A DNA stretch of 27,993 nt from contig JAZRWA010000093.1 in NCBI GenBank assembly GCA_045599485.1, positions 1 to 27,993 of the forward strand. The letters run 5' to 3'. Shown here in pieces: positions 1,225 through 25,028 of this stretch. Source of the DNA: Clostridia bacterium. Its GTDB lineage: Bacteria; Bacillota; Clostridia; Christensenellales; Aristaeellaceae. The translations under genes were made by a program, and so were the position numbers. Position 1 is the first letter of the stretch; each line of letters starts with the position of its first letter. The notes under the pieces are model-generated. The model saw only the letters and a program-made list of their open reading frames with translations, was not told the origin of the DNA and did not search any database.

Positions 1225-1244
1225 TGTAATCACCTCCCACAGAT

Positions 1245-1289
1245 AAGATAACACGAGATAACCTTTAAGTCAAGTTATCTCGTGTTATC
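1245..1289 (-). promoter_or_regulatory. Candidate promoter (-35 TTGACT, 17-nt spacer, extended -10 TGtTATCTT) embedded in a perfect 16-bp inverted repeat (operator candidate) upstream of the ATPase gene
   Basis: On the minus strand, TTGACT is at 1273-1268 and TATCTT at 1250-1245, with a 17-nt spacer. The arms gataacacgagataac (1247-1262) and gttatctcgtgttatc (1274-1289) are perfect reverse complements with an 11-nt spacer. Confidence 0.5.
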
Positions 1290-1494
1290 AGTTCGTTTAT
1301 TATTTTCGGTTTTGCGGCGGGGATGCACATGACAGATTATGCAAGGCCAACAGCATGCTTGATTCTTTAGGGCATATGAAGTAGCATGCTGTGCTGCCAC
1401 ATCATAGCTCTTTTCTTTCGCAGAGTACTGGGATTTGTTTACCGGGGTTTATTTGTTCATTGGTCCTTTCATCTTTATTGAAGTGTCGTGCGTA

Positions 1495-1785
1495 TCAATG
1501 GTCAGCTGACCACAGGATTGCATCATTGAGCCGTTCTTCAAAACATGGTAGTGTTTTTCCATTGAAGAAGTCAACTATCAAATCTTTCAGGAGGGGGGAT
1601 TGGCTCAAGACTTTTGTCAGGTCATTATAGTACCAATTAGGTTGCTCGCTATCTAGTATGCATAGAATGCCATCTGTTAGTTGCTTCTTGCGTCTTCTTT
1701 GATCTCTTGCATCCAGAAATTTCCCCGCATATTCAGAAAAAGCAAACGACACGACTTGATCTATAAGGTCTTTGATTATGCTCAT
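1495..1785 (-). CDS. Hypothetical 96-aa protein
   Basis: ATG-initiated ORF with a weak purine-rich RBS (AAAGGTAGAG), co-directional with and 92 nt downstream of the 479-aa gene. I recognise no motif in it. Confidence 0.4.
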   Translation of the reverse strand: MSIIKDLIDQVVSFAFSEYAGKFLDARDQRRRKKQLTDGILCILDSEQPNWYYNDLTKVLSQSPLLKDLIVDFFNGKTLPCFEERLNDAILWSADH

Positions 1786-1877
1786 TTATAATCTCTACCT
1801 TTCTTCTGATACTGCTTGCTTTATCTAAACAAAGGTACAATATCTGAAAAATCATAATGTATTTGAGGGAACAATCA

Positions 1878-3317
1878 TCAGTTATTTTCTTCATTGATGA
1901 CATATCGCTGATTCTTGCTCTTGGGCCTATCTGGCATAGTCAGCCGAAGTTTTCCTTCTTGAACCAACGGTAATACATACTGACGCATCATGAAAGATGA
2001 TGCCTGCACACCTAAGTACTCGGCAATCTCTTTGCGTGAACGTGGCGTACTGCAGAAAGTCAGCAGTGGTGTCTCTTGCGGCTTTTCTTCGATACGAACC
2101 GAGTTCTTCAAGATAACAACGAACTCACCGCGGCGGTTTTCAAAAATCGGTTCCTCAAGCCCATATTCTTCCATTTCTTTTCGAATTGTCGGGATACCGG
2201 AATAACGATTTTCTGCGCCAAGCAAAGCCTCTGCCATAACGGCAAGAGAAGGATTGCGTAGATCTGGTTTGACATAACCAAGTTGCTCCACTGTGATTCT
2301 TCCATACAGTCCGCCGGGGCTATGAATCTCGAGCCTGTCGCTAAAGAAGTTTACCTGAATAGGTGTGCCTTCGGTTAGCGGGCTGTAATCACGATGGATC
2401 AATGCATTTAAGATTGCTTCGCGGATAGCTTTCGGCGGATACTCGGTCCGGTCTTCACGACGTCCATCTTTCGAATGAATGATGGTTTTTCGCTTCATGT
2501 TCCTGAGGCAGAAGCCCATCGATTCTTCTAACATGGTCTTCAAATTACCTTCTATTCTGCGATTATCCAAGAAACGTGCCTCAGCAGAATCAGTGTCACC
2601 AATCTGTGCTCCGGGAACAACAATGGCAGTTACAGCCAATTGCGGAAAGAAACCTTGGGGAAACAAACCGAAGTTCATAACGGCAGCCAACGTAAACTGT
2701 TCATTTATGGTTATATTCAGCAGCTCAAATGTTTGATCATTACTTAGTCTCGAAAACATTGGACGTTCAGAACGCATCCTCTGAATATAAAATTGGATAT
2801 TATCACTGTCCATCAGTCCTATAGTAGCACGTTCAACAATTCGTTCATCATCACGTTGATGCTTGCGGAATGCTTCCAAGCTGTACAGTTCGTATTCTGT
2901 CATAGGCAGATCCGCATCTCCAACACGAACATACGAACCATTGAGCCTTCCTGCACCTTTGTAATAACAAGGACGATCTGTTAAGTCAATTCCAGGAATC
3001 TCAGCAGCGCAAATATGCATTTCGTGGAATTCACACATTGTAAATACAGCTCGTACAGGTGGTTCCATCTGCAAGCATTGCTCAGTCACCTTTTTTTGAA
3101 GGTCCTGTAAATCATAAACACCCACAGCAGAAAAGTCTAAACGCTCGTCAAGTCCAAAGAGAATAATACCTCCGCCATCCTGATTGGAAAAACTCGACAA
3201 AGTATCATATAACCGCCTGGGACATCCCTGCGTAGCGGCTTTCACTTCAAGACATTGACCTTCTGCTTTCATATGCAGCGTACGTTCAACAAGTTCATGA
3301 AGTTCTTCAATCGTCAT
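1878..3317 (-). CDS. AlbA_2 (Schlafen-like) N-terminal domain plus HATPase_c_4 domain protein with a C-terminal wHTH-like tail; putative DNA-binding regulator (family often mis-annotated as RecG-like)
   Basis: 479-aa ORF with a GAGGTGG RBS. It has an N-terminal EGQCLEVK motif (the AlbA_2 E..LEFK type) and the NALIHRDY motif characteristic of HATPase_c_4 family proteins. Confidence 0.8.
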   Translation of the reverse strand: MTIEELHELVERTLHMKAEGQCLEVKAATQGCPRRLYDTLSSFSNQDGGGIILFGLDERLDFSAVGVYDLQDLQKKVTEQCLQMEPPVRAVFTMCEFHEMHICAAEIPGIDLTDRPCYYKGAGRLNGSYVRVGDADLPMTEYELYSLEAFRKHQRDDERIVERATIGLMDSDNIQFYIQRMRSERPMFSRLSNDQTFELLNITINEQFTLAAVMNFGLFPQGFFPQLAVTAIVVPGAQIGDTDSAEARFLDNRRIEGNLKTMLEESMGFCLRNMKRKTIIHSKDGRREDRTEYPPKAIREAILNALIHRDYSPLTEGTPIQVNFFSDRLEIHSPGGLYGRITVEQLGYVKPDLRNPSLAVMAEALLGAENRYSGIPTIRKEMEEYGLEEPIFENRRGEFVVILKNSVRIEEKPQETPLLTFCSTPRSRKEIAEYLGVQASSFMMRQYVLPLVQEGKLRLTMPDRPKSKNQRYVINEENN

Positions 3318-3573
3318 TTTATGCCACCTCTACTCTAATTTATCACATAACTACGCTAATTTCAAGAAACACTACTCTAATTTATTCGTTTTCTAACGAT
3401 TTTATTCGTAAATTTAATTTTTATAGTATTTTAAGTTTTAAAATATTCATGTTATTTATGATGTCTGTAATCAAAACAACTCGCTAAGCTAGTGGCAAAC
3501 TTCGTGCCTTCAAGGCATAATACAAGCAACACCTAAAAGCCAAACCGATGGGGGGCGAAAAGAGAGTATCAGA

Positions 3574-3614
3574 ACAACAAAAAACTTGCTGCATCATCCT
3601 CAACACAGCAAGTT
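3574..3614 (-). terminator. Rho-independent terminator candidate (minus strand)
   Basis: A 9-bp stem (aacttgctg 3583-3591 / cagcaagtt 3606-3614) with a 14-nt loop. On the minus strand it is followed by TTTTGTTGTT. Confidence 0.45.
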
Positions 3615-3814
3615 AACTGATATGTCCCCACAGCTTCAGGCCTTTTCTCCATGACCTAATCCATATTCACCTTTCTGACAACCACCTTTATATCAAGGCG
3701 CAGCAAACACACGACCTTTTGACACTTTTCTTCATCGTCATGGGAGCATACCGTACCCTCAAACCCTTGTGCCACCTGCATTTCTCGTTCATCGTCCAAA
3801 TTAGCCTCCAAATT

Positions 3815-3860
3815 TATAACGGTTTTTATAACAGAGAATACCGTTATAGATACCGTTATA
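3815..3860. repeat. Clustered short repeats (candidate recombinase arm-type binding sites) next to the island junction
   Basis: ataccgttata occurs at 3838-3848 and 3850-3860 (direct, 12-nt period). An inverted copy tataacggt is at 3815-3823 and a partial tataac at 3827-3832. Confidence 0.45.
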
Positions 3861-3919
3861 ATTCAAAACCTGAGCCTCGCAAACTCTTATTTTTCAAGGC
3901 TTTACGCTTCATCAGCCGT

Positions 3920-3969
3920 TTCGACTACGAATCAAAAGGTCGTGGGTTCGAATCCCGCGGAGCGCGCCA
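3920..3969 (+). tRNA. 3' fragment (anticodon arm to CCA) of a tRNA-Arg(ACG) gene; attR-like remnant, not an intact tRNA
   Basis: Anticodon loop CTACGAA is at 3925-3931 with ACG at 3927-3929. The T-arm gtggg-ttcgaat-cccgc is at 3942-3958, the acceptor 3' strand ggagcgc is followed by discriminator g and CCA (3959-3969). There is no D-arm or matching 5' acceptor strand upstream. The anticodon stem has one mismatch at its 5' boundary. Confidence 0.65.
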
Positions 3970-3970
3970 C

Positions 3971-4001
3971 AAGAAGCAGTTGCAAAACTGCTTCTTTTTT
4001 T
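3971..4001 (+). terminator. Rho-independent terminator directly after the tRNA fragment
   Basis: A perfect 11-bp stem (aagaagcagtt / aactgcttctt) with a gcaa tetraloop, followed by a T-run. Confidence 0.8.
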
Positions 4002-4310
4002 GCGTTTTGAAGGCTGTGCCCGGTGTGCTTTGCAGTCCGTTAAACATGAACCCGATCGTAGCGCTCACGATCACACCTTCCGTTGTCTCGGTTTCGGCCT
4101 TGCCATTGTGGATCTTCATTGTGAAAGGATAAGTCTTTCCATCCACACGCCATACAGCAGCATGGCATAATCACCGTCTTCCCTCACTCCGGCACACTGC
4201 TCCGATCATTTGGTCTGCATCATGATCCTATACACCGCGGCAAATATGCGGCAGGTCATTCCTTTTATACAAGAAAGTGCCCTTTTTTATTCGGACAACA
4301 CACCGGGGGA

Positions 4311-5348
4311 TCAGCGGCTCGACGCGTCAAAGGTAACGGAACAGTCGGTGCCGGCGATATAGATTGTCTGATCATCATGATTCGGGATGAATTCCGTTAC
4401 ATACATGAACGCAGGCACATGCAGGGCTTCGAAACGGGTGCTGTTCAGTTCTGCGGAATCGGAGATCGGTTTGTACCATGCCGTCGTATCTTCAAGGGCA
4501 TAACCGCCCATGCTGAAGCGATCTTCCGCGGACATGCCGAAATAATAGACCGAGCCATACCCATCGCAGTCAACGATGCCCCATGTCGGATCAATGAAAT
4601 AGCTGCCGCCGTCGATGCGGGCGATCACCCACGCATGCGATCCTGCGCCGTTTTTATTGCCGGGGTTCTGCACCATATCGGCAGAGATACCTGCCAGATT
4701 GTAGAGGAAAGCCAGTCCGTTTGAGAAGCCGGTGCAGATGCCCGTATGATTCACGATGGCGGAGAAGGAGCCTTCCCAGTAATGCTGCTCCTGAAGCGTA
4801 TAGCTGTCAGCGTCATTGTAGATGGCATAATCGTATGTGCTGTCAATGGTGAAAGCATAATAGAGGATCAGGGCGCGCATGGCTTCGCTGTCGTCTTTGC
4901 GGAGCAGACTCATGTATTTATCCACAGAGGCCTCAAATTGCCGAACCAGCTCCATGGTCTCATCCGCATCATACATGTAATTGAGTTTGAGTATACCGGT
5001 GCGCGTGTTGAAATTCCGGTTGACATCATAATCCGTCAGTGCCATGACCGGCGGACACATGCGGTACAGCACGCCGCCGATGTAATCGACATCACCGAGA
5101 GACAGACCGTGAAGATCCACCTTTGTCTCATGGGCAAAGAAAGCGTCGACGACCCGTCTTGCACCATCGATGACCTTCGGATCCAGGCAGGCAGCGGTCA
5201 GTTCGGGTACATTGTGATAGTCGATCTCATATTCGTATCTTTCGTACGATCTTTCCACAGGTTCGGCTTCCTCCGCCGCCGTGAACGGGACGGCAAGTAT
5301 CATCATTGTCAGAATAACCGTTACCAGAAAACAGAGTTTCCTTTTCAT
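4311..5348 (-). CDS. Secreted transglutaminase-like (cysteine protease fold) protein
   Basis: 345-aa ORF with an AAGGAG RBS 8 nt upstream. The N-terminal signal peptide is MKRKLCFLVTVILTMMILAVPFTAA. Cys-His-Asp core candidates are GICTGFS, SHAWV and IDPTW. Confidence 0.8.
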   Translation of the reverse strand: MKRKLCFLVTVILTMMILAVPFTAAEEAEPVERSYERYEYEIDYHNVPELTAACLDPKVIDGARRVVDAFFAHETKVDLHGLSLGDVDYIGGVLYRMCPPVMALTDYDVNRNFNTRTGILKLNYMYDADETMELVRQFEASVDKYMSLLRKDDSEAMRALILYYAFTIDSTYDYAIYNDADSYTLQEQHYWEGSFSAIVNHTGICTGFSNGLAFLYNLAGISADMVQNPGNKNGAGSHAWVIARIDGGSYFIDPTWGIVDCDGYGSVYYFGMSAEDRFSMGGYALEDTTAWYKPISDSAELNSTRFEALHVPAFMYVTEFIPNHDDQTIYIAGTDCSVTFDASSR

Positions 5349-5566
5349 ATCATTTACTCCTTTTCATTTCTCCCGGATGCCGTGAATCCCTTATGGATCG
5401 TCCTGAAGCGAGGGAGCATATCCGGCTCCTGTTCACTTTCAGCCATGGGCAACTTCAATGATATTCGGGTATGACCATATTCGTCTATATATTGAATGAT
5501 TCTGTCAGAGCTTGGTTTTTCTCTTTCAAATCCATCGTCTTTCCATCGATACACAACTGCATTCGC

Positions 5567-5595
5567 ATTATAAGACCCAAATGGGACGCTGTCAA
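5567..5595 (-). promoter_or_regulatory. Consensus sigma-A/sigma-70 promoter (TTGACA, 17 nt, TATAAT) about 215 nt upstream of the transglutaminase-like gene
   Basis: On the minus strand, TTGACA is at 5595-5590 and TATAAT at 5572-5567, with a spacer of exactly 17 nt. Confidence 0.6.
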
Positions 5596-5805
5596 TCTTT
5601 GCTCTGTTTCCGCGCAAAGAAGGTCACGTGCGGGGTTTATATCGACTTGGAAAGGTCCCTCCTCCCACCGGACGGAGGTTTTCATATGCGGGCGCAGCCC
5701 TTTGTTTCTGTCCCGCCCTTGAGGTCGTAATACGGTCCGGCATTTGCTTGGGCTTGTTACCTGCTGTCCGTACATTAAACCGGTGCCTGGCGAATTCATT
5801 TCAAG

Positions 5806-5838
5806 CAACAAAAAACCACCCGAAGCTTGTCGGGTGGT
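5806..5838 (-). terminator. Rho-independent terminator of the hydrolase gene
   Basis: An 8-bp GC-rich stem (ccacccga 5816-5823 / tcgggtgg 5830-5837). On the minus strand it is followed by TTTTTTGTT. It sits 18 nt after the stop codon. Confidence 0.75.
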
Positions 5839-5855
5839 GCCAGGGGAGCGCCTGA

Positions 5856-6959
5856 TCACTGCACGTTTTCGCCGATCCACTGATCGACCACAGCAGCGAT
5901 GTCGAGGCTGTTCATTTCAATCATCATCATGTGACCATTGCCGTGAATGTCCAGATCGGGAAGGCTGATGTAGTCAATGTCGACACCGGCCTGAGACAGA
6001 AACATGGCGGTCAGATAGTCGTAGGTGTTATGATAGGAAGCTTCGGAGGTGATGATGGTCATCGGAATGTTCTTCAGGTTGACCAGCTGGCGGGCAGGTT
6101 CCTTCTGCAGCTTACCTTCACGCAGGCCGCTTTCCGCAGCGGGGGTGTAAGTTTCCGTTTCGATATCCTCGGGGCCGTTAATCGCGGGCTCAAAGGTCAT
6201 CGGCAGGCCGGTCACACCATAATCCGTATTGTTCTTGGAGAAGTTGGGTCCGGAGGGCTCCAGAGCCACAACCGCCTTGACCAGTGCAGGACGTGCATCC
6301 GCCAGCAGCCAGCCATAGGGACCGGACTGGGAATGTGTCACAACGATCGCGTCGCCGATCTTGTCCAGCAGGGCAGAGCCGGCATTCAGCGCGAGCTCCT
6401 GCATCACGATGTTGCTGCTGATAGAAACATTTTGAGTGGCATAAAACTGACGATAGGCTTCAGATTCCATGCTGATGTCTGCGGGCCACTGGGTCTGCAG
6501 CTCATTGTCAGTGCCGGCAAAGCTTGTCAGACCACGCTCGGCAGTCACATTGCGGTATGTTGTGGATGCATCAACAGGATAAGAAGCACGGCCGCGCGTA
6601 GGCATATCGCAAACATACACGATGTAGCCCTGGCCCACAAAGTAGTCAGTCCAGCCATCCTTGCCATCCACGGTGCCCATCCAGTTCAGACCGGTCTGGT
6701 AATTGCCGTGCAGGAAAACGATGGGATAAGGCTTGGTGACTTCTACGGGCTCAAACACTTCAACATACATCTGGCCGCGCATCACAGAGCCCTTGTCGGC
6801 TTCGCTGTTCACGTATTCACCGCCAACATAGAAGAAGCCCCAGTTTTTCAGGTTCGTGCGGTCATGCATCGGAATTCCATCAGGGACTTTTGCACCCTCA
6901 GCAAGCGCGCTGAAAGCAAACAGCATCAGTGCCAGGACGATCAAAAACACCTTTTTCAT
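5856..6959 (-). CDS. Secreted alpha/beta-fold hydrolase (esterase/lipase-like)
   Basis: 367-aa ORF with a GGAGG RBS. The signal peptide is MKKVFLIVLALMLFAFSALA. It has an HG oxyanion motif (VFLHGN) and a nucleophile elbow THSQSG. Confidence 0.85.
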   Translation of the reverse strand: MKKVFLIVLALMLFAFSALAEGAKVPDGIPMHDRTNLKNWGFFYVGGEYVNSEADKGSVMRGQMYVEVFEPVEVTKPYPIVFLHGNYQTGLNWMGTVDGKDGWTDYFVGQGYIVYVCDMPTRGRASYPVDASTTYRNVTAERGLTSFAGTDNELQTQWPADISMESEAYRQFYATQNVSISSNIVMQELALNAGSALLDKIGDAIVVTHSQSGPYGWLLADARPALVKAVVALEPSGPNFSKNNTDYGVTGLPMTFEPAINGPEDIETETYTPAAESGLREGKLQKEPARQLVNLKNIPMTIITSEASYHNTYDYLTAMFLSQAGVDIDYISLPDLDIHGNGHMMMIEMNSLDIAAVVDQWIGENVQ

Positions 6960-7303
6960 TGTTCAACCTCCGAATTATTCATCTTAACCAACAGCAACGT
7001 CAACGCTGCTGTAAAGTACAGTATCGTGGATCTGCACCGGTTCAAATCCTTATATAAATATCTTATAAGTATTGCCGGATAAAGTCCAATACATAATAGT
7101 CATAGTCACCGTACTGCTGCTCATAGATGCCCCGGCCGGCTTCATCGAAGGAAGGCATGCAGCCGTTCTCGCCTTGGCTTCTTGGGTTCAGCAGCGGAAC
7201 GATTCGATTGCTCGTATCCTTCAGTCGGCGGCGTTTACGACGAGATCGGTTCTTTCCGTTTGTGCGGATCGTAGTGCATAATGGCACGGCCGCGGCGGAT
7301 ACA

Positions 7304-7332
7304 TTGCAAAAGCATATGAAATATGGTAAGAT
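7304..7332 (+). promoter_or_regulatory. Candidate promoter of the Sel1/J-domain/HIRAN operon (-35 TTGCAA, 17 nt, extended -10 TGgTAAGAT)
   Basis: TTGCAA is at 7304-7309 and TAAGAT at 7327-7332, with TG at 7324-7325. It lies 47 nt upstream of the start codon. Confidence 0.45.
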
Positions 7333-7378
7333 TTAACAAGGTTTCATCGATAGAGGCATAGCGAAGGAGATGGTCACA

Positions 7379-8263
7379 ATGACATACGACGAAGCGATGA
7401 AGATCGGACGGAATTTCTACAGCCTCGCAAATCCGTCCGAGAATGATGTGATCCTGTTCATCGAAGCCATGGATTATCTGATCGATACCACCCATGGGGC
7501 ACGATTCATGATGATGCTGGGCGGGTATTATTACGGTGTCAAGAATTATCACCTGGCCCGGAAATACTATGAGATGGCCGCGGAAATCGGCAACACGGAT
7601 GCTTATGCCGGACTGGGCTATATCTATTACTATGGCCGTACCGGGGAACCGGATTACGAAAAAGCCTTCAAGTATTATTCGAAGGCGATGGAGGCCGGTG
7701 ATCTCCAGTGTACCTACAAGGTCGCCGACATGTACAAAAACGGCTTTTTTGTGGAAAAGGATTACGAAAAGTATAAACAGATCATCGAACAGCTGTACCC
7801 GAAGGTGAAAAACGCACGACGGCTGGGAGACTGCTTGCCGGAGGTATTCACGCGGCTGGCAAGGATCCGGAGCAAGGAAGGCCGCACCGATGAAGCGCTG
7901 CAGCTGTACTGGAACGCACGCGATTTTCTCCGCCAGCGGATCTGCTATAATCCTTTCTTTGGCAACCTGAGCATCATGAAAGGGCTGATCGCCGATCTGT
8001 ATTCGCTTCAGCCCTTTGACCCGGAGGACTTTTCCCTTTATGACCTGTATTGGGTTTTGCGAACACCAAACCGTGTGCGTTTCTGGTATGACGAGAAGAA
8101 ACACACGGTCGAATCGCTCACGGAAGAGAACGCTGTCGTGATTCATTTCGACGACCGTTGGTACCGCACAGTGGATGATTTCTTTGCAAAGGCTGAGATC
8201 GATGGGGAACTTCTGACATCCCTTGAGGATGAACTGTATATGTTTGAGGTAGATAAGAAATGA
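7379..8263 (+). CDS. Sel1-like repeat (SLR/TPR-family) protein with an uncharacterised C-terminal half
   Basis: Tandem Sel1-type repeats are visible (ARKYYEMAAEIGNTDAYAGLGYIYYYG, YEKAFKYYSKAMEAGDLQCTYKVADMYKNG). I chose the ATG at 7379 because AAGGAG (7364-7369) lies 9 nt upstream. The track start at 7370 abuts the RBS. Confidence 0.8.
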   Translation: MTYDEAMKIGRNFYSLANPSENDVILFIEAMDYLIDTTHGARFMMMLGGYYYGVKNYHLARKYYEMAAEIGNTDAYAGLGYIYYYGRTGEPDYEKAFKYYSKAMEAGDLQCTYKVADMYKNGFFVEKDYEKYKQIIEQLYPKVKNARRLGDCLPEVFTRLARIRSKEGRTDEALQLYWNARDFLRQRICYNPFFGNLSIMKGLIADLYSLQPFDPEDFSLYDLYWVLRTPNRVRFWYDEKKHTVESLTEENAVVIHFDDRWYRTVDDFFAKAEIDGELLTSLEDELYMFEVDKK

Positions 8264-9039
8264 GCGGGATCATCCGTGTAAAGACCGCAGGCTATGACCG
8301 ATATGAGGAATTGCTGCTTCAGCGTGACCAGTACAGGAAGGACGCGGACACGGCGTTTTTGAACTATGTGCGCGAGTTCGGCGAGGAAATCCGGGCGAAT
8401 TTTGAATTGAAGGTCGAATGCATCCGCATCCGCAAATCCATTGCCTATTGTCAGGCGGCGCTGAATCACGGAAAAAAGATCGACGCGGTAGCCATGCAGC
8501 AAATGCTCGCCCTTGAAATGCAGCAGTATTATGATGAGCTTCAGCAAATGACAGAAACCAACGAAACCTGCCGGCGTCTGGAAACCGCTTCCGCGTATGA
8601 CGTGCAGCAGATCAAAAAGCTCTACCGTGAGCTGGCCAAACAGCTGCACCCGGATATCAATCCCGAAACAAGCAAATCAAAAAAACTCATTGAGATCTGG
8701 AATTGCATCGTGGCCGCCTATAAGGCCAATGATCTGTCGGAGCTGAACGCGCTGCGGGTGCTGGCCAACAAGGCGCTGAACGAGCTGGGGATGGGCAGTG
8801 AGGAGATCGAGATTCCCGATATCGACAAACGCATTGCCGAATTGGAGGAAGAGATCGAAAGCATCGTCAGCAAAGACCCGTATCAATACAGGTTCCTTCT
8901 CCGTGCCCCCGATCTGGTGGAACAAAAGCATGATGAGCTGAAAAAGGAGCACCGGGAATATGAAGAAGCACGCCAACAGCTGCAGGCCCTTCTGGACGAT
9001 CTGATGCAGCAGGGAGGTGCAAAATGGGTACTGAACTGA
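8260..9039 (+). CDS. J-domain (DnaJ-like) protein lacking the G/F, zinc-finger and C-terminal substrate domains; coiled-coil flanks
   Basis: The J-domain helix II-HPD-helix III pattern is IKKLYRELAKQLHPDINPE...LIEIWNCIVAAYKA, with HPD codons at 8647-8655. The start overlaps the upstream stop as ATGA (8260-8263). There is a GAGGTAG RBS. Confidence 0.85.
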   Translation: MSGIIRVKTAGYDRYEELLLQRDQYRKDADTAFLNYVREFGEEIRANFELKVECIRIRKSIAYCQAALNHGKKIDAVAMQQMLALEMQQYYDELQQMTETNETCRRLETASAYDVQQIKKLYRELAKQLHPDINPETSKSKKLIEIWNCIVAAYKANDLSELNALRVLANKALNELGMGSEEIEIPDIDKRIAELEEEIESIVSKDPYQYRFLLRAPDLVEQKHDELKKEHREYEEARQQLQALLDDLMQQGGAKWVLN

Positions 9040-9404
9040 GCATCACCAACGGTCAGATGATCGCGCTGACGGAAAAGGAAATGATCAAGCCGCTGATTCG
9101 AGAAATCCACCTGTTTGATTCCTATATCGCCGGCACAACGCATCTGGAAGACCCCTCTGTACTGGAGAACATACCGGAAGGCATGAAGCTGCGCCTCCGC
9201 CGGGAAGACAACAAGTTTGACAGCAATGCCATATTGATATTGAACGAACAGGGGAAAAAGATGGGCTATGTGCCGGAAAAGGACAATATCATTTTTGCCC
9301 GTTTGATGGATGCCGGAAAAATGCTGAACGCGAAGGTAAAAAAGACAGAGCATCACGGCAGCTTCATCAAGGTAGCCATTGGCATATTTCTGGTGGATTT
9401 TTGA
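9024..9404 (+). CDS. Stand-alone HIRAN-domain protein
   Basis: 126-aa ORF. The sequence IAGTTHLEDPSVLENIPEGMKLRLRREDNKFDSNAILILNEQGKKMGYVPEKDNIIFARLMDAG matches the HIRAN pattern (G..y....l..G..l.L.RE..N..D.NAI.v....g..iGYvp...a..la.l.d.g). The start overlaps the J-domain gene by 16 nt. There is a GGGAGGTG RBS. Confidence 0.8.
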   Translation: MGTELSITNGQMIALTEKEMIKPLIREIHLFDSYIAGTTHLEDPSVLENIPEGMKLRLRREDNKFDSNAILILNEQGKKMGYVPEKDNIIFARLMDAGKMLNAKVKKTEHHGSFIKVAIGIFLVDF

Positions 9405-9487
9405 TACGGCACCCCCGCTGCCGGCTGTTTCACGATCAAAATCCATCATGGAGCAAATCGGCTCATCATCGACCCTGCCCACATGAC

Positions 9488-9530
9488 AAAGGCACGATCT
9501 CCGTCTGTAGGGAGATCGTGCCTTTTGTTG
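9488..9530 (+). terminator. Rho-independent terminator of the three-gene operon
   Basis: A perfect 12-bp stem (ggcacgatctcc 9491-9502 / ggagatcgtgcc 9511-9522) with an 8-nt loop, followed by TTTTGTTG. Confidence 0.8.
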
Positions 9531-9577: not shown

Positions 9578-10909
9578 TCAGGCGTTGTAGGTTTCCTCGT
9601 CCAGCTTGTTTTCGGTCTTGGCGACCACAATAGCAGCCACGGAGTCACCCACGCAGTTCAGGCTGGTCACCAGCATCTCGATGGGACGGTTGATGGCCAG
9701 GATCAGGGCGTAACCCATCATAGCAGCTTCACCGGTGAAGCCAACACCGCTCAGGATGGTGAAGAGGATGATCGCGCCCGCACCGGGAGCAGCGGGAGTG
9801 CCGGCCGAGGCGATCAGGGCCAGCGCCATGATCATGATCAGCTGGGGAATGGACACAGCGTAGCCGCCCACACCGGCAAGGAACAGGGTAGCCACCACCT
9901 GCATGATGGCCGTGCCGTCCATGTTGATGGTCATGCCCAGAGGCAGCACATAGCTGGCGATCTGGTTATCTACGCCCAACTCCTTGGTGTTGGTATCAAT
10001 GTTCAAAGGCAGGGTCGCGGCGCTGGAGGAGGTGGAGAAACCAAACACCATCACCTTGAAGATCTTCTTGATGAACTTGATGGGATTCAGTCTGGTCAGC
10101 ATGGTCAGCAGCGCGGGGTAGCACACAAACAGGTATACCAGTAGCAGCGCCACCGTCAACAGTACATAGCTCAGGGCAGGCATCAGGTAGGTGATGCCGT
10201 AGGTAGCAAAGGTACGGCACAGCAGCATGAAGATGGCGACAGGGCCGAACTTCTCAACCACAAAATTCAGGAACACCACAATGATATTGCTCAGTTCCTT
10301 GCACAGCTTGTGCATGGTGCTGCCCTCGCCCATGCCCAGCTTGTTCATGCACAGACCGGTGCCGACAGCCAGGAACACCACGGCCAGCACAGCGTTGTTG
10401 ACGCTGAAGGTTGCACCGATGTTGCTGGGAATGATGTTCAGGATCACATTCAGCGGGTTGCTGCCGGTGGAGCCGGAAGACGCGCTCAGGCCCTCCACCA
10501 CGATGTTGAACATACCGGCGCTGTAGCACACCAGACCGACGACGCCGGCAATGATCAGAGCCACAACGCTGGTGAGCAGGAAAACACCAAAGGTTTTGGC
10601 AGACACACGACCCAGGGTCGATGCATCGGAAATGTTGCCAATGGCAATCACGATGGAGCTGAACACCATCGGCACGATGACCAGCTGCAGGCTGCGGATA
10701 AACAGCTGACCGATGATATAGAACAGGCCGATGGCCTTTTCCGCACCGGCGGCGGTGATATCCTGGAACAGCAGGTTGTTGATGGTCTTCCAGGTGTCAG
10801 AGGTAGCGCCCAAGCTTTCACGGATGCTCATGAAGATGAGGCCTGCAACGATGCCCAGCACCATGGCAGCCAGCATTTTCACAGCCAGCTTGTTGTTCTT
10901 GGATTTCAT
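9578..10909 (-). CDS. Dicarboxylate/amino acid:cation symporter (DAACS family)
   Basis: 443-aa polytopic membrane ORF with a GGAGGAAAC RBS. Conserved DAACS C-terminal motifs are present (ASAGTPAAPGAGAI, NRPIEMLVTSLNCVGDS). Confidence 0.9.
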   Translation of the reverse strand: MKSKNNKLAVKMLAAMVLGIVAGLIFMSIRESLGATSDTWKTINNLLFQDITAAGAEKAIGLFYIIGQLFIRSLQLVIVPMVFSSIVIAIGNISDASTLGRVSAKTFGVFLLTSVVALIIAGVVGLVCYSAGMFNIVVEGLSASSGSTGSNPLNVILNIIPSNIGATFSVNNAVLAVVFLAVGTGLCMNKLGMGEGSTMHKLCKELSNIIVVFLNFVVEKFGPVAIFMLLCRTFATYGITYLMPALSYVLLTVALLLVYLFVCYPALLTMLTRLNPIKFIKKIFKVMVFGFSTSSSAATLPLNIDTNTKELGVDNQIASYVLPLGMTINMDGTAIMQVVATLFLAGVGGYAVSIPQLIMIMALALIASAGTPAAPGAGAIILFTILSGVGFTGEAAMMGYALILAINRPIEMLVTSLNCVGDSVAAIVVAKTENKLDEETYNA

Positions 10910-10939
10910 GATGTTTCCTCCTGTCTTTGGTTGAGTTGA

Positions 10940-10965
10940 AAAATGCTCAAATCTTCAGCATTTTA
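10940..10965 (-). promoter_or_regulatory. 8-bp inverted repeat overlapping a candidate extended -10 (TGaTAAAAT) of the symporter promoter
   Basis: The arms are aaaatgct (10940-10947) and agcatttt (10957-10964) with a 9-nt spacer. On the minus strand TAAAAT is at 10965-10960. Confidence 0.35.
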
Positions 10966-11078
10966 TCAGGAATGATCCCAAAAAGCAAGAGAAAACACTA
11001 AATTTGTGCTGTATCGTATGCGCACCCGGAAAACGCAGCGGCAAAAAGCCGCAGAACGGCTGACACGAAATCATCATC

Positions 11079-11107
11079 TTGTATCGTCTGGAGGAGCATG
11101 GTATAAT
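11079..11107 (+). promoter_or_regulatory. Candidate promoter of the S41 peptidase gene (-35 TTGTAT, 17 nt, extended -10 TGgTATAAT)
   Basis: TTGTAT is at 11079-11084 and TATAAT at 11102-11107, preceded by TGg. A ~115-nt leader follows. Confidence 0.5.
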
Positions 11108-11222
11108 TCTTTCGGTACAGAAGAAGAAAAGTGTTAAAATAGCCCTGTTTTCAGGGCGGAGCAACGCCTGTGCCGCCGTCCGCGCGAGGCGGCTCGGAGC
11201 ATTCCACAAGAAACGAGGTTTT

Positions 11223-13067
11223 ATGCAAATGATCAAAAAACTGACAGCGCTGCTGCTGGCAGCCATGATTGCGCTTCTGGCCGTGTCCGCAGGAGCAGAG
11301 GCATTGTCCGCGGAAGAGGACGCCCCCGTTTTCCAAACGCTTCCCATCTATTATCACAGCAGTACGTTGGAAAAAACGCTTGACGTTGCTTTCTTCAACG
11401 GCTGCATGGACATCCCCTATTGTTCTGCCGAAACGGCGGCCGAGCTGCTCTACGCCTTGAACGGCTACAACATGCGATACGGCTTCACCACCTACCGGCT
11501 GCTGGAGAATGCCGGCATGCTTTCCCGCCTGGATGAAGACGGCATGGACATTGAGGTGTTTTACATGCTGCGGGAGAACGGTTCCTTTGTGCTCATCAAC
11601 CATGAAGAAAACCTGATCTGGATCAACGACCGCGACCTGTTTGCGGCGCCCTCCTTTGCCGTCTCCGGCGGCGACCTGGTCACCGCCAGCGGGCTTTGCT
11701 ACAACGATGACGGTTCCGTCCGTTGGAACGATGCCCGGGACATTCCCTTTGCAAACCTCTATCGCCGCGTTGCAAGCCAATCCTATAAGCGCGAGGGCGA
11801 GGTCACGGAGATCCTGCTGGACGACTATAACATCCGCATCGAGGCCTACGACGGCCATTTCTATGTGCCACTGGCGACCCTGTCCGATCTTTTGCTGCCC
11901 TGCCCTGTCACCTACAACGGGGAGGCCCTGTTTGCCCTCCGGCAAGGGCTGGATCAGAAACGTGTCAACGCCGACGGCCTCACCCAATACGATCTGTATT
12001 ATCGTCCCGGTGCGCGGCAGCGCAGCGAGGAACTGGCCTGTTTTACCTACAATGAGCTGTGCCTGATGCTGGATCATTGTTACGGTCTTCGGGAAGAGCA
12101 TGGCGCGCTGAACGGATTCAACAACTATTTTATCGCCAGCGGTCTGGAAGCAGGCTTGAACAATACCGATCCCCAAGTGTTTACAGATGCTTTGAATCAG
12201 GTGCTGGCCGGCAACTTCGGCGACCTGCATTCCGGTCTGACCTATCTGTCCTCCTATGCCGGAAGTGACTATACGGTCTCCCATCAAAACAGCTCCATTA
12301 CGCTGACGGACTACAACCGTGTCCTCAGCCGTTTTCTGAAGGCCCGTGCGGAAAGCGGGATCGCCATCGGCGATAACATTCAGGATGGCTATTATGAGAT
12401 CGGCGATACCGCCTATGTCACCTTTGACTCCTTTGTCAGCGCCACCCACGACTATTACGATCCTGACCTGGCCGATCAGCTGGAAGATCTCTACATGTCC
12501 GATACCATCTCGCTGGTCATCTGGGCCCACCAACGCATTCACCGGGAAGGCAGCCCGATCCGCAAGGTCGTCATTGACCTGTCCTGCAACACCGGCGGTC
12601 ATCTGAACGCCTGCATGTACATTGCCGCCTGGGTGCTGGGCGCCGCCAACCTGAGCGTCGAAAACGTGACCACCGGCGCGCAGTATACGACCGTGTACTG
12701 GGTGGATGTGAACCTGGATGGTCAGTGCCTGGAAGACGATGAACTGGGTGTGGATCAGTTGGACGTCTACTGTCTGGTCAACGGCAGCTCCTTCTCCTGC
12801 GGCAATCTGCTGCCCACCCTGTTCAAGCAGGATGGGCGTGTGACGCTGCTGGGACAGACCACCGGCGGCGGCGCCTGCGTGGTCCGCAGCACCTCTGCCG
12901 CGGATGGCACGCTGTTTGACATCTCGGATTATCACCGCCTTTGCATCGTCAAAAACGGCACCTTCTACAGCATTGACCGCGGTGTGGACGAGGATATCCC
13001 CCTGCGCAAGCCTGCCTCGTACTATGACCGTGCCGCGCTGGCGGAATATCTGGACACCATCCGCTGA
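11223..13067 (+). CDS. Secreted S41-family (C-terminal processing/tail-specific type) peptidase
   Basis: Signal peptide MQMIKKLTALLLAAMIALLAVSAGAEA. S41 motifs are VVIDLSCNTGGHL and LVNGSSFSCGNLLPTLFKQDGRVTLLGQTTGGG. I chose the ATG at 11223 (ACGAGG RBS) over the upstream track start. Confidence 0.85.
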   Translation: MQMIKKLTALLLAAMIALLAVSAGAEALSAEEDAPVFQTLPIYYHSSTLEKTLDVAFFNGCMDIPYCSAETAAELLYALNGYNMRYGFTTYRLLENAGMLSRLDEDGMDIEVFYMLRENGSFVLINHEENLIWINDRDLFAAPSFAVSGGDLVTASGLCYNDDGSVRWNDARDIPFANLYRRVASQSYKREGEVTEILLDDYNIRIEAYDGHFYVPLATLSDLLLPCPVTYNGEALFALRQGLDQKRVNADGLTQYDLYYRPGARQRSEELACFTYNELCLMLDHCYGLREEHGALNGFNNYFIASGLEAGLNNTDPQVFTDALNQVLAGNFGDLHSGLTYLSSYAGSDYTVSHQNSSITLTDYNRVLSRFLKARAESGIAIGDNIQDGYYEIGDTAYVTFDSFVSATHDYYDPDLADQLEDLYMSDTISLVIWAHQRIHREGSPIRKVVIDLSCNTGGHLNACMYIAAWVLGAANLSVENVTTGAQYTTVYWVDVNLDGQCLEDDELGVDQLDVYCLVNGSSFSCGNLLPTLFKQDGRVTLLGQTTGGGACVVRSTSAADGTLFDISDYHRLCIVKNGTFYSIDRGVDEDIPLRKPASYYDRAALAEYLDTIR

Positions 13068-13094
13068 CCGCCTTTCCCCTTCGGCAAAGAAAGC

Positions 13095-13137
13095 AAAAAA
13101 GGACACCGCCATGGATCCAATGGCGATGCCCTTTTTT
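13095..13137. terminator. Bidirectional terminator between convergent genes
   Basis: An imperfect 12-bp stem (13101-13112 / 13120-13131; 10 pairs, 2 mismatches), flanked by an A-run (13095-13100) and a T-run (13132-13137). Confidence 0.6.
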
Positions 13138-14201: not shown

Positions 14202-15017
14202 TTATAAAGCAATGCCGTGAGAACGGAAAAACGCCGCGCTGTCGCGTACCGCCCGGTTCACCTCTTCGAGGTTGGAAGGACCGGCTGCCGTGAACTCGAT
14301 CTCCACCGAGAAGGGGCTGTTGTTGCCGTTTTGATCCAGCACACCAAAGATGCCGTCAAAATCGATAGAACCCTTGCCGGGAGCGGGGAAATTCCACTCG
14401 TCCACGGCACCGGCCTTGTCCTTGATGTGCAGGAACGCCACATCATTCACGCAGGCTTTCAGGTCTTCCACGGGGTCGACCCGACCGTAAAAAACGACGT
14501 TTGCCGTGTCATAGTTCACCTTGACCCGGTCGCTGTTTACCTTGCGCACGATCTAAGCCAGACGGACGCCCGTGCCGTGATCCTTCCCGTGCGTTTCCAG
14601 CACCAGCATCATGTCCGCCGCCCTGAGATCGGGCACAAAGGCTTCGATGCAGCGCACCGTTTCATCCAGATCGGCCTCGTGCCCATCCCGGATGTGCGCC
14701 TCGCCGATGGAGGACACGATGTAGCGGCAGCCGAAAAGCTGCGCCAGACGGATGTTGTCGCGAAAATCACGGCTGCGGGCAGGGTCGGTCAGGTTGGTGT
14801 GACCGCTCATGGCGAACGGGGTCAGGTCATGATCGCGAAGCATATCCCGCACACGCAGCAGACGGCGCAGAGGCTGATCGGGAAAAACATGCTCTGTCCA
14901 TCCCTTGGTGGCCGTCAGTTCCATATAACGGAAGCCCGCCCGCGCGGTGCCCTCGATGGCATCCTCCAGAGAAAAGCCATGATAGCTGTTGGAATTCATT
15001 GCAACGATTCTGTCCAT
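14202..15017 (-). pseudogene. Xylose-isomerase-like TIM-barrel sugar-phosphate isomerase/epimerase, interrupted by a single in-frame TAG at 14555-14553 (a pseudogene under code 11, or a read-through gene)
   Basis: Track ORFs 14553..15032 and 14202..14549 are in the same frame, separated only by TAG and ATC. The N part (GFRYMELTA...MLVLETHGKDHG) and the C part (VKVNYDTANVVFYG...FLHIKD...FSVEIEF) are the two halves of one TIM-barrel fold. The likely start is the ATG at 15017, with a GAGGAGAAG RBS. Confidence 0.8.
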
Positions 15018-15028
15018 GGTGCTTCTCC

Positions 15029-16066
15029 TCACGCGTTGATGGTCACGGTGCGGCCCGTTTCGGCGGATTCGGCGGCGGCAAACACGGCACGCATGGCCGG
15101 CAGCACGCTCTCGGCGGAAATGTACGGCTGGATCGGATCGATCAGATGCGCCACAAACAGATCGATGATGCCCGAGCTGGTCTGATTGTCGTTGGTCTGG
15201 ATCTGATCGACATCATAGTATTCGGTCGTGCCGTCGCGCCTGCCCAGCACGATGCTGTGCGCGGGGTCGTCATAGATGCGCAGTACGCCCTCGGTGCCAA
15301 ACAGCACGGTCGAGTTGTCCTCGCCGCTGTAATCGGTCCAGGAGGCCGTCATGGTGCCCACCGCGCCGCCGCTCATCTGATAAATGCAGATGGCATTGTC
15401 ATCCACCGAGATGGGCTTTCCATCCGGCGTTTTCTTGTCGAGCGAGCCGAGGTAAGCGGTGACTCCGGTGACCGTCTGCCCCAGCAGATACTGGATCAGA
15501 TCCGTTTTGTGCACGCCCAGGTCGGCCATGGCGCCAAACGCGGCATGGGTCTTGTCAAAAAACCAGGTGCCGCTGCCGGAATCCACGCTCCAGGTCTCCG
15601 GGCCGCCGTGACGGAAGGCGGTGGTAAAGGTGATCACTTTGCCGATCGCGCCGCTGCGGATCAGCTCATACGCCTTCCGGTGTGCCGCCGCCAGCCGCTG
15701 GTTTTGACCGATCATAAGCACCTTGCCGCACTCCGCGGCGACACGCACCATCTCCTCACAATCGGCAAGGGTGATGGCCATCGGCTTTTCGCAAAGCACG
15801 TGCTTGCCCGCCTTCAGGGCGGCAATGGCCATCTGCGCGTGCGCGGCATTGGCCGTGCAGATGCTGACGGCGTCGATCTGCGGATCGTCCAGCATGCTTT
15901 CAAAAGTATCATACGCCACAGCGCCGTACTGAGCCGCAAGCCCCGCCGCGCGCCCGGCGTTGAGGTCAAACAGGCCCCAAATCTGTGCATCCGGGTTCGC
16001 CTGATATTCCGGCAGGTGGCGGACCTGGGCGATCTTGCCGCAGCCCGCAATGCCAACACGAATCAT
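15029..16066 (-). CDS. Gfo/Idh/MocA-family oxidoreductase (inositol/sugar dehydrogenase-like)
   Basis: 345-aa ORF with the Rossmann motif MIRVGIAGCGKIA, the family motif KHVLCEKP, and a GAGGTG RBS. Confidence 0.9.
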   Translation of the reverse strand: MIRVGIAGCGKIAQVRHLPEYQANPDAQIWGLFDLNAGRAAGLAAQYGAVAYDTFESMLDDPQIDAVSICTANAAHAQMAIAALKAGKHVLCEKPMAITLADCEEMVRVAAECGKVLMIGQNQRLAAAHRKAYELIRSGAIGKVITFTTAFRHGGPETWSVDSGSGTWFFDKTHAAFGAMADLGVHKTDLIQYLLGQTVTGVTAYLGSLDKKTPDGKPISVDDNAICIYQMSGGAVGTMTASWTDYSGEDNSTVLFGTEGVLRIYDDPAHSIVLGRRDGTTEYYDVDQIQTNDNQTSSGIIDLFVAHLIDPIQPYISAESVLPAMRAVFAAAESAETGRTVTINA

Positions 16067-21130: not shown

Positions 21131-21159
21131 TTGATTTCATTTCCCTCTTACACTATAAT
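21131..21159 (+). promoter_or_regulatory. Candidate promoter (-35 TTGATT, 17 nt, -10 TATAAT) for the divergent TIM-barrel gene
   Basis: TTGATT is at 21131-21136 and TATAAT at 21154-21159. Confidence 0.55.
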
Positions 21160-21235
21160 GGAACCAGAGTAACGGGCTTGTTTTGCCTGTTGCGGGATAT
21201 TTATACAGCATCATATAGAAAGGGATGACAAGCCC

Positions 21236-22150: not shown

Positions 22151-22167
22151 CAAGAGCGGCATGATGG

Positions 22168-22197
22168 GAAGCGGCCCAAAAAGCCGCTTCTTTTTTT
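22168..22197 (+). terminator. Rho-independent terminator
   Basis: An 8-bp stem (gaagcggc / gccgcttc) with a 7-nt loop, followed by TTTTTTT. Confidence 0.85.
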
Positions 22198-22207
22198 GTT
22201 TTTTCTC

Positions 22208-22236
22208 TTGAAAGGCCGAAAAAGATGTGATATGGT
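22208..22236 (+). promoter_or_regulatory. Candidate promoter of the GGDEF-EAL gene (-35 TTGAAA, 17 nt, extended -10 TGaTATGGT)
   Basis: TTGAAA is at 22208-22213 and TATGGT at 22231-22236. Confidence 0.5.
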
Positions 22237-22323
22237 AATAGACAGAAGATGTATACAACACCATAGACCGCGTTTGGAGCTGCCCGCCGCGACTGCAAAA
22301 CGCGATCATCAAGGAGCGGTCAT

Positions 22324-24864: not shown

Positions 24865-25028
24865 AAAAGCTTCACAAACCCGATGTTTTTGCCCGCGTCT
24901 CCGGCCCTCTTCCACCCCTCTCCCCAGCCCGCTGCCGCCTCATTTTGGATCAAAAACGCCCCTTTTTTGCCCCACCGCACCGCGTCCGGGGCGTATCCCA
25001 TGATTGCCGTAAAGGAGGACGACCCCAC

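Follow-up and report, generated by a model that had tools for sequence, protein, structure and literature searches.

A 27,993-nt stretch of contig JAZRWA010000093.1 (positions 1–27,993) from a Clostridia bacterium (assembly GCA_045599485.1; hereafter the window) contains three same-strand open reading frames (ORFs), A (7370/7379–8263), B (8260–9039) and C (9024–9404), which form a compact cassette that recurs in related genomes. Gene B encodes a J-domain protein predicted to act on DnaK, gene C a stand-alone HIRAN protein and gene A a Sel1-repeat protein. The conserved entity is a B–C core with a frequent A subunit, and it is associated in a subset of loci with enzymes that remove ADP-ribose, one of which is fused to B. 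An earlier reading of the window, made from its sequence only, had described the three genes as a candidate uncharacterised system that recruits DnaK to DNA ends. The results presented below make such recruitment plausible, as judged from the protein sequences, and point to ADP-ribosylated DNA or nucleoprotein as a possible site of action.

Conservation of the cassette

To determine whether the three genes occur together elsewhere, 160 loci were compared, comprising 80 fetched genome loci and 80 metagenome loci. The same gene order recurs in these loci. Gene C is situated directly downstream of B in 78 of the 80 genome loci and in all 68 metagenome loci with enough sequence, and 55 of 79 loci have a B/C overlap of exactly 16 nt. 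Gene A is found directly upstream of B less regularly (approximately 64 of 80 genome loci and 52 of 61 metagenome loci, or about 85%), and the A/B spacing clusters at –8, –4, –1 and 0 nt. An A-like gene is absent nearby in 11 genome loci, and in L028 it follows C. The two loci that possess B but no C, L071 and L081, were considered for a replacement of C; this was rejected, as the next genes encode a CN-hydrolase and a GNAT protein, which are unrelated. The pairwise distances of the three proteins are correlated, with r values of 0.81 for B–C, 0.76 for A–B and 0.72 for A–C.

No other gene shares this linkage. When flanking ORFs were clustered, none recurred in more than 7 of 81 loci. In the nearest relative (L090, the B protein of which is 80% identical), DNA homology with the window is restricted to positions 7379–9404, from the ATG of A to the stop codon of C, at 78% identity; the flanks of the two cassettes are unrelated and the position is not syntenic. 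Because C almost always follows B, A is often present, nothing else is recurrent and homology ends at the ORFs, the conserved entity is a B–C core with a frequent A subunit and without conserved regulatory DNA. The gene-neighbourhood survey suggested in the sequence-only reading therefore shows the triad in the same order, as a coupled unit, outside this genome. The proposal that all three genes form one such unit holds for the near-universal B–C pair, but about 15% of loci lack A or have it in another place.

Gene B was found in at least 248 of 185,579 species-representative genomes, a lower bound obtained with a single peptide pattern. The 80 fetched loci derive mostly from Lachnospiraceae, Butyrivibrio, Saccharofermentans and other Clostridia of the rumen and gut, and cultured hosts include Butyrivibrio hungatei NK4A153, Butyrivibrio sp. 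YAB3001 and Sarcina sp. DSM 11001.

Additional Sel1 genes were observed around some cassettes. A shorter second Sel1 protein (approximately 208 aa) flanks the cassette in 13 of the 160 loci, being encoded after C in L015, L023, L107, L108, L144, L151, L153, L165, L168 and L170 and before A in L061, L110 and L154. A-like paralogues of approximately 305 aa are encoded downstream of the cassette in L031, L057, L067 and L076; in L067 and L076 a same-strand ADP-ribosylglycohydrolase (ARH) gene adjoins the paralogue.

The J-domain protein B

Pfam DnaJ (PF00226) matched B with an E value of 8.3e–7 and 29.5 bits, as compared with a cut-off of 27.8, the match being limited to helices II–III. The protein is composed of a long N-terminal helical hairpin (residues 12–106), the J-domain (residues ~105–175, nt ~8572–8784) and C-terminal helices. 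In an alignment of 24 B relatives (41–86% identity), H130-P131-D132-x-N134-P135 was invariant within the motif YRxLAKxxHPDINP, the same signature as that found in DnaJ and CbpA. In the AlphaFold2 model the HPD tripeptide follows a helix at residues 112–129 and precedes one at 141–155. When a profile of the B family was compared with the PDB, it matched J-domains only, 40 or more of them, including those of DnaJ and CbpA, over profile positions 111–157. The earlier assignment of a J-domain with an HPD motif is thus borne out, by a Pfam score above cut-off and by the invariance of HPD in all 24 sequences.

The remainder of B is unlike characterised J-proteins. Pfam and NCBIfam detected no G/F region, zinc finger or DnaJ_C domain in B, which matches the DnaJ models in their J-domain part only, in agreement with the earlier statement that the client-binding modules of DnaJ are missing. 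That reading had also placed the J-domain within coiled coil, but the AlphaFold2 model is a compact all-helical fold (pLDDT 88.4, pTM 0.79). Foldseek found no whole-fold match for B in the PDB, and the non-J parts gave no Foldseek match at E < 0.3 and no profile match in the PDB. Since only the J-domain matches structures in the PDB and the fold as a whole has no match there, B is, on the evidence of sequence and model, a class-C J-protein with new flanking domains. Its intact J-domain signature predicts that it would stimulate the ATPase of DnaK.

A full search with a profile hidden Markov model identified B relatives in 313 clusters (50% identity) at E ≤ 1e–30, nearly all of them 245–270 aa in length. 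P0398 (353 aa) was examined as a possible fusion of B and rejected; its extension is of low complexity and looks like the product of a frameshift.

The HIRAN protein C

The HIRAN assignment of C is secure, with a Pfam (PF08797) E value of 1.7e–11 and 44.2 bits against a cut-off of 24.7. The domain occupies residues ~30–126 and is preceded by a family-specific N-terminal extension of approximately 30 aa. In the PDB, the C family profile matched 3k2y, an uncharacterised HIRAN protein of L. plantarum (1e–10), and the HIRAN domain of HLTF (0.025). In the latter, weak alignment, the invariant C residues N63, D66, A69, I70, G81 and Y82 correspond to HLTF N91, D94, A97, I98, G109 and H110, respectively, and the nearly invariant F65 and N68 to HLTF Y93 and N96. 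N91, Y93 and D94 of HLTF have roles in 3′-end binding, and the HLTF positions that read the 3′-OH and stack on the base have conserved counterparts in C. We infer from the aligned residues that C may bind the 3′ ends of nucleic acids.

Prokaryotic HIRAN domains have been called uncharacterised (PMC11090510). The statement in the sequence-only reading that bacterial HIRAN domains are usually fused to nucleases or helicases does not agree with the literature, in which stand-alone and HipS-fused prokaryotic forms are described (PMC11090510, PMC8262856).

The Sel1-repeat protein A

Pfam Sel1 (PF08238) matched A at 4.5e–15 (55.9 bits against a cut-off of 30.7). The AlphaFold2 model contains a Sel1/TPR α-solenoid over residues ~1–226 (pLDDT 92.8), for which Foldseek returned LpnE, LceB, HcpC and Oxalobacter SLR proteins with a probability of 1.00. 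The family consists of 1827 matches of ~292–298 aa each. The C-terminal domain, of approximately 80 aa (nt ~8012–8260), is α/β in the model and has no fold or family match in Pfam or the PDB, so that the earlier description of a Sel1-repeat protein with an unassignable C-terminal domain is upheld in both respects.

Association with ADP-ribose-removing enzymes

It is apparent that genes for enzymes that remove ADP-ribose are attached to a number of cassettes. ARH, Macro, PARG or NADAR genes were found near the cassette in approximately 23 of the 160 loci (14%), mostly on the same strand; as many contigs are short, this figure is a lower bound. Among the Pfam families of 143 immediate neighbours, ADP_ribosyl_GH (four), Macro (two) and microbial PARG (two) are among the commonest. 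ARH, Macro and PARG genes account for 8 of 146 neighbours at rank 1, 4 of 137 at rank 2 and 3 of 374 at ranks 4–9, and all eight at rank 1 are on the same strand, 2–107 nt from the cassette. The odds ratios for this enrichment range from 5.5 to 7.1 (p = 0.004–0.001, uncorrected for relatedness). The metagenome loci replicate the association (approximately 13 of 80).

In one case the linkage extends to a gene fusion. P0481, a 606-aa protein, joins an ARH domain to a full-length B and is encoded on four contigs, the two shown coming from two assemblies; their flanks look like Bacteroidota. In the fusion locus L088, the HIRAN gene is next, with the same 16-nt overlap. Elsewhere, the gene order in L037 is Macro…ARH-SseB, A, B, C, Macro, with ARH-SseB in the operon of the cassette, and that in L122 is GmrSD-like, WYL, p241, A, B, C, MacroD+NADAR. 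NADAR genes directly follow C in L141, L149 and L142. The association of the cassette with ADP-ribose hydrolases, including the fusion, is statistically supported and replicated. NADAR and MacroD partners fit ADP-ribosylation of DNA bases, as known from the DarT/NADAR literature.

The window itself contains no ARH, Macro, PARG, NADAR, WYL or Nudix gene, and there is no effector enzyme in its copy of the cassette. The earlier statement that no enzymatic effector is encoded is correct for this copy, but it does not extend to related loci, in which ADP-ribose hydrolases of four families are adjacent to the cassette or fused to B.

Genomic neighbourhood

The cassette is chromosomal in location. 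No B gene was found in 50,697 phage and 72,556 plasmid records, and only one of 2.9 million IMG/VR viral contigs (L087, 8.3 kb) carries one; a phage- or plasmid-borne function was therefore rejected. Genes for ordinary metabolism or transport predominate among the immediate neighbours. Approximately 6 of 80 loci adjoin bona fide defence genes (full-length DruE, a type IV restriction endonuclease, HKD-Snf2, HsdR and Cas12a), and BREX adjoins the cassette in L153 and L141. The association with defence genes is modest and was scored without a control comparison.

WYL genes lie near approximately 20 of the 160 loci. In L153 (7884–10539) and L141 (~10649–11846), a WYL regulator gene followed by BrxA- and BrxB-like genes is located directly downstream of the cassette. 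As the WYL genes of this type are followed by BrxA and BrxB, they represent the BrxR of the neighbouring BREX, and a role for WYL as a dedicated regulator of the cassette was rejected, at least for the L153/L141 type; at least some of the ~20 WYL genes are the BrxR of an adjacent BREX.

Two other neighbourhoods were observed. In L073 (3591–5793), the HIRAN gene is immediately followed by a WYL regulator gene and the 5′ part of a gene for a Cas12a-like protein, recognised by eye from its N-terminal motif. In L122 (879–4798), a GmrSD-like DUF262/DUF1524 protein (626 aa), a 104-aa protein, a WYL protein and a cysteine-rich 241-aa protein are encoded upstream of the cassette. On the basis of these sequences the region looks like a small defence island; the cysteine-rich protein recurs in L125 and L142.

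Proposed function

The reading favoured here, tentatively and at somewhat less than an even chance, is that a B–C complex with A as scaffold brings DnaK to nucleic-acid 3′ ends or to ADP-ribosylated DNA or nucleoprotein targets. We infer the B–C(–A) complex, its use of DnaK, its binding of 3′ ends and the nature of its substrate. B would activate the ATPase of DnaK at the site where B is retained. Coupled to B in its synthesis by the 16-nt overlap, C probably binds B through its N-terminal extension, and the HIRAN pocket would recognise a free nucleic-acid 3′ end. A would be a frequent, dispensable protein–protein adaptor that holds a client or a partner enzyme. Such a complex would place DnaK remodelling at 3′ ends, for example those of blocked or gapped DNA. 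Because ADP-ribose-removing enzymes are repeatedly attached to the cassette, and an ARH is fused to B, the likeliest targets would be DNA, or proteins on DNA, that carry ADP-ribose. The cassette may in that case provide the sensing and chaperone functions of a repair process or counter-measure against ADP-ribosylating toxins of phages or competitors.

A bolder form of this proposal, which we consider unlikely, is an unrecognised pathway in which the HIRAN protein reads the 3′ end at an ADP-ribosylated or blocked template, the J-protein loads DnaK, and the adduct is cleared by Macro, NADAR, ARH or PARG enzymes, whether their genes lie in cis or elsewhere. DnaK loaded at the 3′ end would clear or remodel bound proteins so that the hydrolases reach the adduct. 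If true, this would represent chaperone-assisted repair of, or immunity to, DNA ADP-ribosylating toxins, and the first targeting of a bacterial Hsp70 to DNA ends by a HIRAN reader.

A number of observations weigh against the targeting of DnaK by a B–C complex to 3′ ends or ADP-ribosylated sites. The alignment of C with HLTF is weak (E = 0.025), and the positions of HLTF R71 and Y72 are occupied in C by T39 and H40. No Hsp70 gene is linked to the cassette among the Pfam families of the 143 immediate neighbours. In 56 upstream regions, no SOS (LexA), CIRCE or CtsR operator and no shared 8-mer was found. The absence of these operators indicates neither a DNA-damage nor a heat-shock regulon, and membership in either was rejected. 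Approximately 86% of loci, including the window, are without a nearby ADP-ribose hydrolase, and the loci are phylogenetically non-independent (L042/L044, L037/L038 and L124/L127 are examples), so the p values for the hydrolase enrichment are optimistic. It may be that only a subset of cassettes has the hydrolase link, or that cassettes and hydrolase genes reside in the same variable islands.

The rival explanations overlap in part. It is improbable, in our view, that the cassette is a stand-alone anti-phage or anti-plasmid defence, in which the HIRAN protein senses invading linear ends or replication intermediates and the J-protein diverts or over-activates DnaK, so that the invader is starved of a needed chaperone or growth is abortively arrested, with no need of a classical effector. 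The distribution is patchy, flanks differ even between close relatives, defence genes adjoin approximately 6 of 80 loci, with BREX beside L153 and L141, HIRAN also occurs in the defence candidate PDC-M03, and B is the fastest evolving of the three proteins (mean pairwise distance 0.54), all of which would be in keeping with defence. A and B, however, match no PADLOC model, most neighbours have ordinary metabolic or transport functions, the enrichment among them is modest and uncontrolled, and the three proteins show strong conservation of both length and sequence, in contrast to many sensors that diversify fast. Nor would a defence function explain the attachment of ADP-ribose hydrolases. The same attachment would be a coincidence, fusion and adjacency alike, if the cassette were a housekeeping accessory of replication or repair, a possibility to which we assign a still lower probability. 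In that case, an end-tethered J-protein would help DnaK dismantle a stalled replisome, a recombinase or an initiator, as DnaJ/DnaK do at λ O–P–DnaB or RepA, with no role in conflict or ADP-ribosylation. DnaK and DnaJ are established disassemblers of replication complexes (PMC8215388), the HIRAN domain of HLTF acts at stalled forks, according to papers cited in the HIRAN literature, and the cassette is chromosomal and mostly surrounded by ordinary genes. But its carriage is limited (the lower bound of 248 of 185,579 species representatives) and the fetched loci are nearly all from rumen and gut Clostridia, which argues against a core function; nor is its position syntenic, and no SOS box is present.

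About as doubtful as the housekeeping role is a regulated pair of the CbpA/CbpM or toxin–antitoxin kind. Here C would mask the J-domain of B, because an unregulated J-domain would harm DnaK function, and would let go of B once it had bound a nucleic-acid or ADP-ribose-like ligand, with A as a client or second regulator. The toxicity of B is a supposition of this explanation; moreover, C has no relation to CbpM in sequence or fold, B is not a class-B DNA-binding J-protein, and L071 and L081 retain B without C. In its favour, the conserved 16-nt overlap implies a fixed stoichiometry, CbpM sets a precedent in blocking the access of a J-domain to DnaK (PMC8215388), and HipN, which contains a HIRAN domain, has been predicted to act as an antitoxin to, or a regulator of, HipI kinases (PMC8262856). 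Finally, the HIRAN fold could bind ADP-ribose, a nucleotide ligand or a protein, and the cassette would then be a quality-control adaptor for ADP-ribosylated proteins, without any DNA. The chaperones of ARG-centric systems have been proposed to bind ADP-ribosylated proteins and HIRAN has been paired with an ARPP protein under a unifying sugar-moiety theme (PMC9503650), and the prokaryotic HIRAN domains are those called uncharacterised (PMC11090510). This alternative is very unlikely in our estimation: the residues of C aligned with the 3′-OH-reading and base-stacking positions of HLTF are conserved. The fit of NADAR and MacroD partners to ADP-ribosylation of DNA bases, noted above, is a further point against it.

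The proposed targeting of DnaK by a J–HIRAN complex would be of interest for several reasons. J-domain proteins set where Hsp70 acts, and class C has few members in bacteria, most of them unexplained. No function has been assigned to prokaryotic HIRAN domains, and host counter-measures to ADP-ribosylating toxins have so far only been predicted. A compact cassette of three small soluble proteins joins these matters, and raises the questions of what ligand a bacterial HIRAN domain binds, whether DnaK is targeted to nucleic-acid ends, and how gut and rumen Clostridia handle ADP-ribosylation. Should the link to ADP-ribosylation be incidental, the cassette would still encode a widespread predicted DnaK adaptor in a major gut clade.

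Layout and base composition of the window locus

The features of the cassette in the window are as follows.

7304–7332, + strand: candidate σ70-type promoter, weak (TTGCAA, 17-nt spacer, TAAGAT, with TG upstream of the –10; read from the sequence)
7363–7369, + strand: ribosome-binding site GAAGGAG, 9 nt upstream of the ATG at 7379 (sequence)
7379–8263, + strand: gene A, Sel1-like-repeat (SLR/TPR) protein (Pfam Sel1, AlphaFold2, Foldseek)
8260–8263, + strand: ATGA stop/start overlap of A and B (sequence)
8260–9039, + strand: gene B, class-C J-domain protein, 259 aa (Pfam DnaJ, family profile, AlphaFold2)
8647–8655, + strand: HPD tripeptide H130-P131-D132 (B family alignment)
9024–9039, + strand: 16-nt overlap of the end of B and the start of C (sequence)
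9024–9404, + strand: gene C, stand-alone HIRAN protein, 126 aa (Pfam HIRAN, family profile)
9488–9530, no strand assigned: intrinsic terminator with a 15-bp stem, 8-nt loop and U-run, and an A-run on the 5′ side (RNA fold)

The three-gene, same-strand layout and both overlaps are present as described in the earlier reading. The ATG at 7379 is the likely start of gene A, as judged from the spacing of the ribosome-binding site and agreement with the 294-aa NCBI protein P0241. The strong terminator also described there is supported by RNA folding: the hairpin at 9488–9525 has a stability of –28 kcal/mol (z = –7.13), and none of 200 shuffled sequences was equally stable. An SDF symporter gene (9578–10909, – strand) is convergent with the cassette; as the terminator is situated between the two, it is probably bidirectional. 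The claim that the cassette has its own promoter fared less well. The candidate at 7304–7332 matches 8 of 12 consensus positions and was not called by a promoter scan, and its region cannot be aligned with L090, so that it is not conserved in the nearest relative.

A G+C content below that of flanks of ~60–65% had been cited as a sign of horizontal acquisition. The G+C content of the operon is 0.504, but that of the upstream flank (1–7378) is lower still, 0.471, and that of the downstream flank is 0.571, so that neither flank averages 60–65% and horizontal transfer is not supported on this ground. The G+C content at third codon positions is 0.64–0.66 for the triad, like that of the upstream genes, as compared with 0.72–0.82 for the downstream metabolic genes. 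The compositionally distinct part is the whole of the left ~9.4 kb of the window; the operon is not distinct alone.

Other genes in the window

Searches for Rfam families and tRNAs in the window gave no matches. Just upstream of the cassette, on the opposite strand, is a 74-aa ORF (7063–7287) with a very basic N-terminus; it has no Pfam match, and its region cannot be aligned with the nearest relative. Further upstream are a putative α/β-hydrolase (5856–6959, – strand), with an N-terminus that resembles a signal peptide by eye, and a weak transglutaminase-like protein (4311–5348, – strand), the Pfam matches of both being sub-threshold. A 479-aa protein (1878–3317, – strand) combines Schlafen/AlbA_2, HATPase_c_4 (RecG-C-like) and Fic-like_C domains, an architecture frequent on mobile or variable regions; its gene (G+C 0.44) is in the part of the window lowest in G+C. 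In positions 1–1878 (G+C 0.39–0.47), the ORFs of both strands are at most 96 aa long, and neither tRNAs nor Rfam matches are present; this edge of the contig may be non-coding or decayed.

Downstream, a 158-aa ORF (14553–15032, – strand) matches positions 4–132 of the 249 of the xylose-isomerase-like TIM-barrel profile (AP_endonuc_2) and is followed by a separate 115-aa ORF (14202–14549, – strand); to judge from the partial match, the region 14202–15032 could be a frameshifted or split gene. ORFs of 652 aa (11151–13112), 390 aa (21137–22312) and 867 aa (22309–24915), all on the – strand and without significant Pfam match, lie in a cluster for sugar catabolism and ABC transport (GFO/IDH/MocA oxidoreductases, permease, ATPase and LysR regulator).

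Comparison with known systems

As the sequence-only reading had supposed, no published system of J-domain, HIRAN and Sel1 proteins was found in the literature or in PADLOC. Literature searches for a J-domain with HIRAN, with ARH or with anti-phage defence found nothing relevant, and a large survey of J-protein architectures makes no mention of HIRAN or ADP-ribosylation. In PADLOC-DB v2.0.0, A and B match no system model (best E values 0.008–0.02), and C matches PDC-M03B in its HIRAN part only.

That match concerns positions 107–217 of the 250 of the PDC-M03B profile, and membership in PDC-M03 was rejected. PDC-M03 (HipN/HipL) resembles the cassette in having a prokaryotic HIRAN domain in a small operon, as a predicted DNA-sensing or regulatory subunit, the HIRAN-containing HipN being a predicted antitoxin or regulator of HipI kinases (PMC8262856). 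Its partner, however, is a HipA-family kinase, and its HIRAN domain is fused to a HipS-like domain, whereas C has only the ~30-aa extension. No kinase was found in the window or among the listed top Pfam families of the 143 neighbours. HLTF/Rad5 proteins belong to the same Pfam family as C, in which the aligned core motif N-x-[YF]-D-x-N-A-I is conserved, but in HLTF the HIRAN domain, which drives fork reversal, is joined to a RING domain and an SWI2/SNF2 motor, whereas C is a stand-alone protein of 126 aa coupled to a co-chaperone.

Among toxin–antitoxin systems, DarT–DarG and DarT1–NADAR offer a partial parallel, in that DNA bases are freed of ADP-ribose by Macro and NADAR hydrolases, which are of the same types as those beside some cassettes. 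The DarT systems are toxin–antitoxin pairs with a transferase and without J-domain, HIRAN or Sel1 components. The 25 commonest Pfam families of the 143 immediate neighbours of the cassette include no transferase family.

The ARG-centric systems offer another parallel. These are predicted to counter viral ADP-ribosylation and combine ARG with WYL/Nudix, Macro/NADAR and varied predicted chaperones, including SseB (PMC9503650). Like the cassette, they are operons without a linked ADP-ribosyltransferase (PMC9503650). L037 has ARH-SseB and Macro genes around the triad, and L122 has WYL upstream and MacroD-NADAR downstream; the ARH-SseB gene in the operon of L037, a fusion typical of those systems, indicates that at least some cassettes fall within the ARG-centric class, where the J-protein B would by analogy fill the role of the chaperone. 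The core of those systems is ARG, whereas here it is J and HIRAN; they have been reported from Actinobacteria, Planctomycetes and Proteobacteria (PMC9503650), the cassette from Clostridia, and DnaJ, the J-domain and Sel1 are nowhere mentioned in their description by Iyer, Burroughs, Anantharaman and Aravind in 2022 (PMC9503650).

J-domain genes beside Sel1-repeat genes also occur in the E. coli hscC-djlC-ybeU-ybeT-djlB-ybeR-ybeQ cluster, with 4-nt overlaps in the ybeR/djlB and ybeU/djlC pairs. The cluster also encodes a dedicated Hsp70 (HscC), and its J-proteins are tail-anchored in the membrane; a HIRAN protein is absent. Orthology to it was rejected: B matches DjlC and DjlB only at E ≥ 1, A matches YbeQ at the level of the repeats only, and no Hsp70 gene is adjacent.

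For a DNA-linked J-protein with a small co-operonic partner, the nearest precedent, by analogy, is CbpA/CbpM. CbpA is a DNA-linked J-co-chaperone of DnaK, co-expressed with the small CbpM, which is encoded directly downstream and blocks access of the J-domain to DnaK (PMC8215388); the B family profile matches the J-domain of CbpA. CbpA is nevertheless a class-B protein that binds DNA via its own C-terminal domains, which B does not have, so that DNA binding would fall to the HIRAN subunit, and C is unrelated to CbpM in sequence or fold. Set beside these systems, and with a putative targeting subunit and a composition as yet undescribed, the cassette fits the pattern of a class-C J-protein targeting module and, in part, that of the ARG-centric conflict systems.

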